A DNA stretch of 18,526 nucleotides from a virus (Duplodnaviria; Heunggongvirae; Uroviricota; Caudoviricetes): the IMG/VR virus record IMGVR_UViG_2695420863_000007. One strand, written 5' to 3'. Each line of letters begins with the position of its first letter. Position 1 is the first letter of the stretch. The position numbers were made by a program. Shown one piece after another: positions 15,001-18,000 of the stretch.

Positions 15001-18000
15001 CCATTCTATGACTGCGCCACAGGGCGTAAGGCCGAGTTTTCCTGAGGGTATGCTGATACTCGTTGATCCGGCCGAGCCGGTAGAGTCTGGGGATTTCTGC
15101 GTGGCTTCTGCAAATGGTGATTCAGAGGCAACGTTCAAGAAGTATGAGAAGGATGCAGGGGTTAGTTACTTGGTTCCATTGAATCCGGCATACAGAACCC
15201 TGGACTGCGATCACACATGCCGCATCATAGGCAAGGTAGTTAAGGCTCAGTGGCCTGAAGAGACGTTTGGATGATGGATGGTCGCAGAGATGCTCGTAGA
15301 GCATACAGCGATGCAGGAGAATTTATGGCACTTAATTTAGAAAGAATATCTTTTATAACCCCATTTGATAGCAGCGAAGAACCCAACCAACCGACGCTTA
15401 ATTTTACATGCAATGAATTTCCTGCGCGGCTATCGATTGATTTCAGGGTTGGTATGATCGGGTTGAAACCAAATTCAAGATATAATTTGGGTATTATGGT
15501 AATCCCCGCGCACCTAATTATAAAAAAAGGTGAGGAAATTCAATTCCCTGACGGCTCTTCGGAATCAGTTTCACTTTTCATCGATACGAAAGATAGCCAT
15601 TTTGAAACAGGGGTTGGCGGACAGGTAATAGTAACATTGAAAGAAATTAGGGTCCCAGCTAAAGGGCTGTATAGTGTTATAGGGATATTGCAAGATAATG
15701 AAGACCCTAAAAATGAACTTCATAAAAATGAATCATTTTTCACCGTAGAGCTATTATGAGTGACGACAGTAATTTAAATAATCATGGAAAGCAAGACACC
15801 AACATATCTGAAAGCCGGAGGTTGAAGGTTGTTGGCGGTTCCGATTTTGAGGCTGAATTTGATAATTCTCCCACCAAGGTGCAAAATAATTACATAAAAC
15901 CGCCACAAACGGAGGAAGAAGTGGGAACGATCAGCAGAGAGGAACTTGATGCTCGCTTAGCTGCTAATAAAGCAGAGATGGAGTCTATTGCTTCTTCCAT
16001 TAGGACTGACATGGCTCTATCTCGTGAAAGCGTTAATGTCCAATTTGCATCACTTAATGCAGCCATAAGCTCTCTATCGTCCAAGATCGATGGAAAGATG
16101 GATAGCGCTGCTGGCGATATAAAAGCAATTAATGGGAGATTCGAAGGAATTCAAGGACAAATAACAGGGGTTAATACCGCAATTAGTGGTGTTCAGTCGG
16201 GTATTTCTATACGATTAGCCATTTTTAGTGTCATTATCGCTGTAATAGTTGCGATTCCCGGGCTGGTATCAGCTTTAAAGTCAGACCACGCACCTTTGCA
16301 ACAGCCTTCCACTTTGCAAGCGCCGCCACAAAATACCCAGCCAACAGACAACAAAAAAATCACTCCCCAGCATTAACGCATTAACCCGGCCTCAGCGCCG
16401 GGTTTTTTGTTGCCTGCACATAACTATCAGGACAGCACCTGCCAGCCAGCCCAAGCCTCTGATTAAATTACTATAATTCTTAATACAACTCCCATATCCC
16501 GCCATCTCGTCACCACCTACTTCGCTCGTTTTTCGAACTTTTCAGCACACCATCCTGCTGTTTCCCCCGCCTTAAGTAAGCAAACCCATCGCGGGGGAAA
16601 CTATTTACACAAAAAAATCATACACATAACGTGTCACACCCTTATTTTACACATTTTGTGATTGACCATTAAATCACAATATGTGACTATTATTTCCATC
16701 AGCAGGACGCTGGTAGCCAAACGGAAAAGATTGGCAGGCTCTTTAAACAACGTCGAACACTCGACTACGTGGCTGAAAAGCCAGATCACCCAACCACATA
16801 AGCTGTGGGATGCAATGCCGAAGCAACCGTCTCAGGAGGAGCTTCGAGATTGCATCGCCAAAGTTTATTCGGGAGGAATCTATGTCCAGAAAAACAGAAT
16901 TTAAAGGCACCGCAGCTTCTCGCCGTAGAGCTCGTCGCGCAAACCTGCAAAGTCAGGAGTCGATTAGCTCCGACAAGCTACACAGGCCAACCCCTTCACG
17001 AGTGGTCTTGCAATGCAAGCGCAAACCAGCAATGAGAGCAGAAGTTATAACTCTGACAACGTTGACCAGAAAATATGAAGGTTCAACTTGTCTTCCAAAC
17101 GTAGCCATTTACGCTGCAGGCTACCGTAAATCCAAACAACTGACAGCAAGATGACTTGTGTTGGTCGCCAGAAAATGAAATTAGGCAGCAAACCACTTAT
17201 TTGAGAGGAATTAATATGTCATCAATCCGCTTAACTACGAGAATGAAAGAGGAAATCGCTCGTAACGCTTTAATTAAGTCCGGGGTGTTCACTGAACTTG
17301 AAGAAGTAACAAAGTTAAAGAACCAGCTTGCACTTGACGCCAGAGTTATTGCGTTTGGCGGGAAAAAGAAAACCGAAGAAGTGGACCAGCTGGCATCAAA
17401 GTTAATGGCTGCAAGTGAGGAACTTCAAAAGCTGGGATGTTCATTTTACTCATGCGATGTCAGTTCATGTTCGATTTATCTGACTGTATCTGGAAGAAGG
17501 GTTGGCTGGCATTCATACGGAAAAGACGGCAACGGTGAAGATATATTGCTCCCTACCCCCGACAAAGATAAATGCATGTTTGACGCAGAACACAAAATAA
17601 CAAAAAGGTTTGATGAAATCTGCGCATTGCAACAAAAACTTGAAGCCAGGAAAAAGGATATAGAATCAAACGTATGGGCTGCTTTGAACTCAGTCACAAC
17701 AGTTAAGCGACTTATTGAAGTTTGGCCTGAAAGCAAAGAGTTGCTACCAAAAGAAGCAGATAAAGCAAGTGCAGCACTTCCTGCTTTACGGGTAGAAGAT
17801 TTGAATAAGATGATTGGACTTCCTTCCGAGGCCGCATAATCGGCCTTTATTTTTGGCATAAACAACAGAATAAACACTGCACTGTGTATTCATTCCAACG
17901 AGTGAATACACGGAGCAATGTCGCTCGTAACTAAACAGGAGCCGACTTGTTCTGATTATTGGAAATCTTCTTTGCCCTCCAATGTGAGGGCTTTTTTATA

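Follow-up and report, generated by a model that had tools for sequence, protein, structure and literature searches.

We analyzed a two-gene cassette located directly downstream of the gene for the cI repressor in an 18,526-nt stretch of viral DNA (Caudoviricetes; IMG/VR record IMGVR_UViG_2695420863_000007), which is referred to at its full length as the window. The right-hand third of the window is a lambdoid immunity region arranged as OR, cI, gene 1, gene 2, terminator, OL/PL, and N (Table 1). Compared with the copies from Klebsiella, Enterobacter, and Cedecea, both cassette genes showed a nonsynonymous divergence (pN) of 0.11-0.43 versus a saturated synonymous divergence (pS) of ~0.7-0.8, and both are real coding genes under strong purifying selection. 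The cassette has been on record in the rex slot since the 2007 deposits of phages HK542 and HK244, in which both proteins are termed hypothetical. The results that are new here are the extent of the family, its near-constant link to repressor genes, the conserved pairing of the two genes, and the exchange of the gene-2 partner together with the N-terminal head of gene 2.

Organization of the cassette and its products

A preliminary description of the window placed the two open reading frames (ORFs) at 15271-15759 (the longest ORF) and 15756-16376 on the plus strand, and these coordinates are correct. It also had the genes joined by ATGA overlaps, gene 1 to cI and gene 2 to gene 1. The stop/start overlap joining gene 1 to gene 2 is present at 15756-15759, and either this overlap or a very tight spacing is retained in the homologous pairs of other genera, whereas the overlap of cI with gene 1 probably has another origin. 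Gene 1 most likely begins at the ATG at 15325 rather than at 15271. Its homologues in other genera are 141-153 aa long and start at the equivalent of M19, the PHROG profile alignment opens at residue 21, the gene has its own AGGAG motif 7 nt 5' of the ATG at 15325, and GC content changes from 0.50 in 15275-15324 to 0.377 from 15325 on. The frame upstream of gene 1 is closed in the Klebsiella and Cedecea loci, and the 18-codon extension differs among Escherichia coli copies (MMDGRR, MMDDRR, or VMISRR) that are identical over the remainder of the protein. Existing annotations give 144 aa (the HK542 depositors) or 162 aa (one RefSeq genome). An alignment of the window, HK542, and loci with an inserted DUF3024 gene revealed that the last 18 nt of cI (GAAGAGACGTTTGGATGA) and the 50-nt leader accompany the cassette even when the DUF3024 gene lies between cI and gene 1. 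The ATGA at 15271 arises because the cassette leader continues from this 18-nt cI remnant; since the remnant is kept across the DUF3024-separated loci, the apparent coupling to cI is best seen as a recombination scar and probably not as a functional start.

Co-transcription of cI and the cassette appears likely because the gap between them is only 50 nt long and free of terminators. The promoter PRM is presumed to lie in the 14539-14571 region by analogy with the HK542 annotation, and a promoter scan inside the unit returned one weak site (15859-15887) versus 5.6 expected by chance. Folding of a hairpin in the leader between cI and gene 1 (ATGCTC-GTA-GAGCAT) was no better than that of shuffled sequence (z = -0.05). 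The unit ends at the intrinsic terminator noted previously, which has an 8-bp stem with six G-C pairs (16383-16404) followed by a T-run and is named Timm in the HK542 annotation. Among 20 representative loci, 16 have a terminator-like hairpin and T-run after their gene-2 homologue. The two copies of a 33-nt direct repeat, D1 (14539-14571 and 16634-16666, 79% identical), bracket the cassette unit. Approximately 200 nt without long ORFs separate the terminator from OL; they contain a perfect 11-bp inverted repeat (GTTTCCCCCGC ... GCGGGGGAAAC, 20-nt loop) at 16560-16601, with no T-run downstream on either strand.

The 16-kDa product of gene 1 was previously described as a 162-aa soluble protein; its solubility agrees with the hydropathy profile, in which no hydrophobic segment was found, and its length is more likely the shorter one. 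AlphaFold2 (AF2) predicted an all-beta sandwich with moderate confidence (mean predicted local distance difference test, pLDDT, of 68; predicted template modeling score, pTM, of 0.62), and its matches in the viral structure library are uncharacterized phage proteins of equal size. For the 206-aa product of gene 2, the AF2 model of the monomer contains a long helix at aa 61-140 (pLDDT up to 91) and a membrane helix at aa 149-174, and the Kyte-Doolittle profile has a single hydrophobic segment at approximately aa 145-177 with a peak of 2.7, in accordance with the coiled coil and single C-terminal membrane anchor read from the sequence earlier. Because a signal peptide was not found in gene 2 and its only membrane helix is C-terminal, we infer a tail-anchored topology in which most of the protein is cytoplasmic and the tail is periplasmic. 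The stalk opens with SREELDARLAANKAE and continues in Gly-containing heptads (IDGKMDS AAGDIKA INGRFEG IQGQITG VNTAISG VQSG). Across the gene-2 family, residues F157, I160, I161, and A166 of the membrane helix are nearly invariant, as are I187, Q188, and P190 of the tail, in which P184 is invariant. The family tail motif QPIIIQVP is degenerate in the window copy (QPSTLQAP).

Searches of Pfam, NCBIfam, and PADLOC gave nothing above noise for either gene, which bears out the earlier remark that the proteins resemble neither RexA/RexB nor any curated family. At E up to 1, Pfam-A yielded no family for gene 1, and its matches to gene 2 were nothing beyond coiled-coil noise; the structure and sequence searches with gene 2 likewise returned only generic coiled coils. 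The PDB profile searches produced only weak coiled-coil or chance matches, and the weak PDB sequence matches of gene 2 included the trimeric coiled coils of HA2, sigma-1, and cavin. The matching PHROGs, 5893 for gene 1 and 5820 for gene 2, are both of unknown function. Searches of the kinds proposed in the preliminary description (hidden Markov models, structures, and PADLOC) found no characterized homologue of either protein. In the literature on HK542/HK244, rexAB replacement, tail-anchored prophage proteins, and DUF1640 with defense, a functional study of these genes was not found. The gene-1 profile search covered 1.84 billion proteins; several giant repeat proteins (P0038, P0049, and P0052; 572-4194 aa) obtained strong whole-protein E-values in it and were rejected as artefacts, since their scores sum 10-22 repeat matches of 2-8 bits each. 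A ClyA-family pore former was also considered and rejected: weak matches to MakA, MakE, SmhB, and AhlB were far below thresholds, and the fold search gave no support.

Table 1. Features of the immunity region and the cassette (window coordinates)
Feature	Position	Strand	Basis or remark
ORF, replication-type product	12192-12893	-	Product looks like a replication protein; matches Pfam Phage_lambda_P
ORF, replication-type product	12890-13828	-	Product looks like a replication protein
cII	13861-14160
cro	about 14300-14518	-
OR-side operator-bearing repeat copy, 33 nt	14539-14571		Between cro and cI; upstream edge of the immunity unit
cI repressor, 215 aa, LexA-like	14627-15274	+	Helix-turn-helix (HTH_31/HTH_3) and Peptidase_S24, E 3.9e-26, Pfam; PHROG 4 transcriptional repressor
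Leader, 50 nt	15275-15324	+	From the cI stop to the probable gene-1 start; AGGAG at 15313-15317
Gene 1, 144 aa (phrog_5893), predicted cytoplasmic all-beta sandwich	15325-15759	+	162 aa with the alternative start at 15271
Gene 2 head, aa 1-58	15756-15929	+	Predicted disordered (pLDDT below 50-58), variable
Gene 2 coiled-coil stalk, aa 59-148	15930-16199	+	Single long helix in the AF2 model
Gene 2 C-terminal transmembrane helix, aa 149-175 (RLAIFSVIIAVIVAIPGLVSAL)	16200-16280	+	Hydropathy and AF2
Gene 2 Pro/Gln-rich tail, aa 176-206, and stop codon	16281-16376	+	Predicted disordered, probably periplasmic
Intrinsic terminator (tImm equivalent)	16383-16412	+	Terminator scan; ends the cI/gene 1/gene 2 unit
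OL-side operator repeat and palindrome (presumed OL/PL)	16634-16685		Direct repeat D1, inverted repeats I3 and I6; downstream edge
N	16882-17154		Pfam N_peptide, E 1.6e-31

Mobility of the cassette and exchange of its modules

Cassette DNA is present in 51 of 5426 complete E. coli genomes (about 1%), with one chromosomal copy in each, and among isolated phages only in HK542 and HK244 (98.5-100% amino-acid identity). Plasmids are essentially negative for the cassette family (two carriers), and the genome-contig scan for the cassette returned a single locus. In HK542 and HK244, the cassette and Timm follow a lambda-type 237-aa cI in place of rexAB, as expected from the earlier assignment of the pair to the rexA/rexB site; the order annotated by the HK542 depositors is cI, two hypothetical genes, Timm, OL/PL, and N. 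HK542 and lambda have common immunity but differ in their slot cargo. Among viral contigs, cI genes of 215, 234, 235, 237, 240, and 245 aa were found in front of the cassette, and at least six different E. coli cI alleles precede it. Conversely, the window cI is 94% identical at the DNA level to the cI genes of mEpX1 and VT1-Sakai, both of which have different cargo in the slot; the mEpX1 pair (159 and 310 aa; locus L002, 2625-4033) matches the PADLOC candidate system PDC-M63 (A, 1.8e-41; B, 7.5e-45). Since the cassette occurs behind many cI alleles and other cargo occurs behind the same cI, we concluded that it is a mobile unit in a mosaic hotspot.

Many E. coli prophages have cI and the cassette separated by an inserted DUF3024 gene of 113 aa (PADLOC candidate PDC-S43, E 7e-42; PHROG 3467; loci L017-L023, L025-L028, and L033; e.g., L018, 3158-3499), and the 18-nt cI remnant on the cassette marks the recombination junction in these loci. 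The GC contents of gene 1 (0.377) and gene 2 (0.432) are lower than those of cI (0.519), N (0.476), and the window (0.474), and the early-left neighbor genes are likewise low in GC (0.42-0.44). The low GC content had been taken as a mark of horizontal acquisition, with which the movement of the cassette behind different cI alleles is in agreement. With its own terminator, its occurrence behind at least six cI alleles, its absence from phages with the same cI, and its deviating GC, the cassette has the properties of a self-contained mobile accessory element ("moron"). The description of the site as one where lambdoid prophages carry lysogen-expressed anti-phage cargo is corroborated by previous studies, in which the cI-N slot is a mosaic-diversity hotspot holding the abortive-infection systems RexAB and BstA (PMC8585504) and a variable defense locus holding HigBAC (bioRxiv 10.1101/2024.02.24.581848).

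A profile search with the gene-2 stalk recovered at least 108 clusters (90% identity), nearly all from Enterobacterales, and about 60 loci were examined. In at least 16 distinct immunity contexts, gene-2 relatives are located directly 3' of a prophage repressor gene, sharing its strand and lying opposite a cro-like gene. The linked repressors include S24-type (LexA-like) and short HTH-only types, and the loci come from Escherichia, Klebsiella, Enterobacter, Cedecea, Salmonella, Yersinia, Pectobacterium, and metagenomes. In most loci, a CCCGGC-N6-GCCGGG stem and T-run lie 3' of the gene-2 homologue. Several pairs were found away from any repressor: one in Yersinia (L003), terminal in a Mu-like prophage and beside dinI, two on contigs with unidentified neighbors of the gene pair (L049 and L052), and one in locus L061. 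Therefore, expression with a repressor is not obligatory, and the unit can stand alone. In L061 and L062 (4001-4751), a distant gene-1 relative and a 108-aa tail-anchored coiled-coil gene lie between tail and baseplate genes of a myovirus-like prophage.

The small soluble gene always comes first, and the tail-anchored gene either overlaps it or begins no more than about 20 nt away. Down to about 25% identity, every gene-1 relative examined has a tail-anchored coiled-coil gene of 108-188 aa after it, and the two overlap. The shortest relatives in the gene-2 position (108-159 aa) stop at the membrane helix and have no periplasmic tail. The partners belong to at least five unrelated families: the beta-sandwich of the window (A), proteins of about 96 aa (B) and about 99 aa (C), proteins of 112-120 aa with two CxxC pairs (CQIC ... 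CDHC; PHROG 4293) (D), and a 149-aa protein (E). The cysteine pairs suggest that the D-type partner (L044 and L046, 3480-3842) is a zinc ribbon.

The type of gene-2 head co-varies with the partner, and BLAST matches between heads are confined to one partner type. In contrast, the stalk does not follow the partner: the window stalk shares 69% identity with a D-type stalk and 68% with one A-type stalk, but only 37% with another A-type stalk. Thus, partner and head are swapped as one block, with the exchange junction located inside gene 2 just before SREEL.

Candidate function and alternative explanations

We propose, at a level of confidence that approaches an even chance, that the cassette is a candidate anti-phage sensor/effector system, namely a lysogen-expressed two-component accessory operon of lambdoid prophages. 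In such a system, gene 2 would be tail-anchored in the inner membrane with head and stalk in the cytoplasm and the Pro/Gln tail in the periplasm, and the stalk would presumably be oligomeric. Gene 1, transcribed from PRM with cI and made in a fixed ratio with gene 2 through the ATGA overlap, would dock on the variable head. The partner and head would form an exchangeable recognition module, with the stalk, membrane helix, and tail as the output module. Upon a phage cue, the membrane part might permeabilize or depolarize the inner membrane, leading to RexB-like abortive infection, or might block a membrane step of infection; the outcome would be either abortive infection or non-lethal exclusion.

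The sensor/effector proposal is favored by the slot position, the repressor linkage, the conserved pairing, the defense neighborhood, the mobility, and the purifying selection, as well as by the modularity, which strengthens it because immune systems typically combine a constant output module with specificity modules that can be exchanged. Several observations weigh against it. PADLOC-DB v2.0.0 (5027 models) searched at E up to 10 gave no match for gene 1 or gene 2, nor did PADLOC match the partner types B-E or the two distant tail-anchored relatives in L011 and L063, and the neighboring PDC systems are candidates themselves. The single membrane helix and 30-aa tail of gene 2 offer no obvious channel, the beta-sandwich fold is generic and uninformative on what gene 1 would sense, and the AF2 confidence is moderate for gene 1 and low for gene 2. 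Some pairs are located away from repressors. Finally, genes at the rex site may serve other purposes: RexA of lambda tunes the lysogeny-lysis switch, and the authors of that study call exclusion as the true function into question (PMC11077077). A broader version of the anti-phage proposal, that the family is a large set of plug-and-play immune modules in which one tail-anchored output has been recombined in frame with at least five sensor modules, each for a different phage cue, is doubtful at present; similar doubt attaches to its other component, a single-helix DUF1640-like stalk acting as a membrane mechanism unlike that of described defense effectors.

Superinfection exclusion, in which gene 2 at the DNA-entry site would block translocation of the genome or ejection proteins without killing the cell and gene 1 would be a cofactor, appears unlikely. 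The block could be exerted by the periplasmic tail through the QPIIIQVP motif or by the cytoplasmic stalk, and it would suit a predicted inner-membrane protein that is placed for synthesis in the lysogen and keeps a short periplasmic motif across genera. Some pairs are free-standing in tail modules or at prophage ends, and the HK97 gp15-type exclusion genes, to which these repressor-free pairs can be likened, are free-standing accessory genes as well. However, most of gene 2 and the whole variable part, head and partner, are predicted to be cytoplasmic, the 108-159-aa relatives have no periplasmic tail, and the tail motif of the window copy is degenerate. A helper function in the prophage's own life cycle is judged quite unlikely; like RexA/RexB in lambda, the cassette would adjust induction, lysis timing, or the choice between lysogeny and lysis, for example by holding a regulator or a lysis factor at the membrane. 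The tight linkage to repressor genes of very different types would agree with such a helper, as would the XhlA-type layout of the short relatives, for which the sequence matches are faint (E 0.26-0.63). Nevertheless, at least six unrelated cI alleles precede the same cassette, the repressors in front of it include the S24-type and the short HTH type, and it also occurs without any repressor; contact with one specific repressor is therefore unlikely, which weakens the idea of a repressor-specific regulator. Moreover, HK542 and lambda have the same immunity and different slot cargo, and exchangeable partner-plus-head modules are hard to square with a housekeeping phage function.

A role in host physiology, with the pair acting as a DUF1640/CCDC90-type membrane scaffold that alters the envelope, energy metabolism, or stress tolerance and has no anti-phage role, is also improbable. 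Matches to PF07798 at E up to 0.01, all below threshold, were obtained for 12 of 49 gene-2 family members (best E 2.4e-7), some Providencia and Proteus members bear the NCBI label "DUF1640 domain-containing," and eukaryotic CCDC90-family members are described as inner-membrane scaffolds. On the other hand, gene 2 itself scores 12.7 bits (E 0.11) against a gathering threshold of 33.5 bits, the matches are of the coiled-coil type, and the family is essentially restricted to prophages, as seen from its presence in only HK542 and HK244 among isolated phages, only two plasmids, and about 1% of E. coli genomes. The module shuffling also suggests an arms race rather than a fixed physiological role. 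A toxin-antitoxin-like addiction pair, in which the membrane toxin gene 2 would be restrained by gene 1 and would stabilize the prophage, seems very improbable. Small, overlapping, translationally coupled genes with one predicted membrane product would suit such a pair, and toxin-antitoxin systems such as HigBAC occur in the slot, but the gene order and sizes are atypical and neither PADLOC nor Pfam nor NCBIfam, including the toxin-antitoxin models of these libraries, gave a match. A toxin-antitoxin pair in this slot could itself defend and so overlaps with the sensor/effector explanation.

If the cassette is indeed anti-phage, it would represent a new defense family with a tail-anchored coiled-coil output, an effector kind so far undescribed, and would show that recognition modules are swapped onto a constant membrane stalk by intragenic recombination. 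It would also help to explain why clinical lysogens of E. coli, Klebsiella, and Enterobacter differ in their susceptibility to phages. The cI-N slot has already been the source of RexAB, BstA, and HigBAC, and the cassette is a further occupant with relatives across Enterobacterales. HK542 is an isolated phage in continuing laboratory use (bioRxiv 10.64898/2026.07.10.737580) and has lambda immunity, so the cassette is easily testable.

Neighboring elements and comparison with known systems

Outside the cassette, the Rfam search of the window detected a P1/P7-type C4 antisense RNA (10029-10113), its a1/b1 target (10175-10227), and isrK (10140-10214), all on the minus strand. Relative to transcription, these RNAs are just upstream of two antirepressor-type genes on the minus strand (8727-9401 and 7930-8658) with the domains ORF6N plus P22_AR_C and Rha plus ANT/KilAC. 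From its sequence features, this arrangement looks like an RNA-controlled second antirepressor immunity module within the nin region of a cI/Cro-type prophage. An sRNA-Xcc1 match (9441-9524, minus strand; 75.7 bits, gathering score 53) is located immediately upstream of the antirepressor gene at 8727-9401. Right after N, a full-length Nmad5 gene (17216-17839, plus strand; E 1.1e-68; PHROG 1965, unknown function) is found, and HK542 has an Nmad5 gene at the same place. At the right end of the window, cIII is marked by a lambda cIII thermoregulator element (Rfam, 88.5 bits) at 18051-18109 on the plus strand. The minus strand encodes a 616-aa protein (2473-4323) between the lysis genes and Q (5859-6482), with DUF1737, a sialate O-acetylesterase (SASA) domain, and DUF6645; the arrangement is reminiscent of the NanS-p type esterases that Stx and lambdoid prophages carry. 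No stx or tRNA genes were found in the window.

Among known protein families, the XhlA-type proteins (PF10779) resemble the 108-159-aa gene-2 relatives in being small coiled-coil proteins with a membrane helix at the extreme C-terminus; XhlA genes occur in the lysis cassettes of Bacillus phages and are not known to lie behind repressors. The DUF1640/CCDC90-like proteins (PF07798; MCUR1, CCDC90B, and archaeal Kcr_0859, PDB 6h9l) share with gene 2 the layout of a head, a coiled coil, and a C-terminal membrane helix, and gene 2 has weak sequence and fold matches to 6h9l. The known CCDC90-like members are mitochondrial scaffolds with no known phage link. Gly-containing heptads and the Pro/Gln tail are features noted in the gene-2 family.

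Among occupants of the slot, BstA (BTP1), HigBAC (lambdoid prophage of E. coli NT1F31), PDC-M63, and PDC-S43 are alternative cargo that presumably shares the repressor promoter. Their architectures differ from that of the cassette, and no homology was found: BstA is a single large protein, HigBAC is a toxin-antitoxin-chaperone system, and PDC-M63 is a pair of other proteins. Actinobacteriophages provide a further analogy. The gp30/gp31 pairs of Butters and Sbash are described as prophage-expressed, functionally linked soluble and membrane proteins that protect against heterotypic phages (PMC7542560, PMC11077077). Sbash gp30 is a RexA homologue by BLAST, Butters is among the phages with rex-like genes, and in both phages the pair is inverted and located apart from the repressor (PMC11077077). 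These rex-like pairs resemble the cassette in their soluble-plus-membrane logic, whereas the hosts and protein families are unrelated.

The comparison with lambda RexAB, which lysogens express from the repressor promoter (PMC11077077), reveals both differences and similarities. No sequence relationship to the cassette was detected (Pfam at E up to 1, PADLOC at E up to 10). Gene 1 encodes a 16-kDa predicted beta-sandwich, whereas RexA is a 31-kDa dimer that has two domains and binds DNA, and RexB has four predicted membrane helices, in contrast to the one C-terminal helix and long cytoplasmic coiled coil predicted for gene 2. In position and organization, the two systems correspond to each other: like the cassette, rexAB is located directly 3' of cI on the cI strand, before tImm and PL, and consists of two genes, the first encoding a soluble protein and the second an inner-membrane protein.

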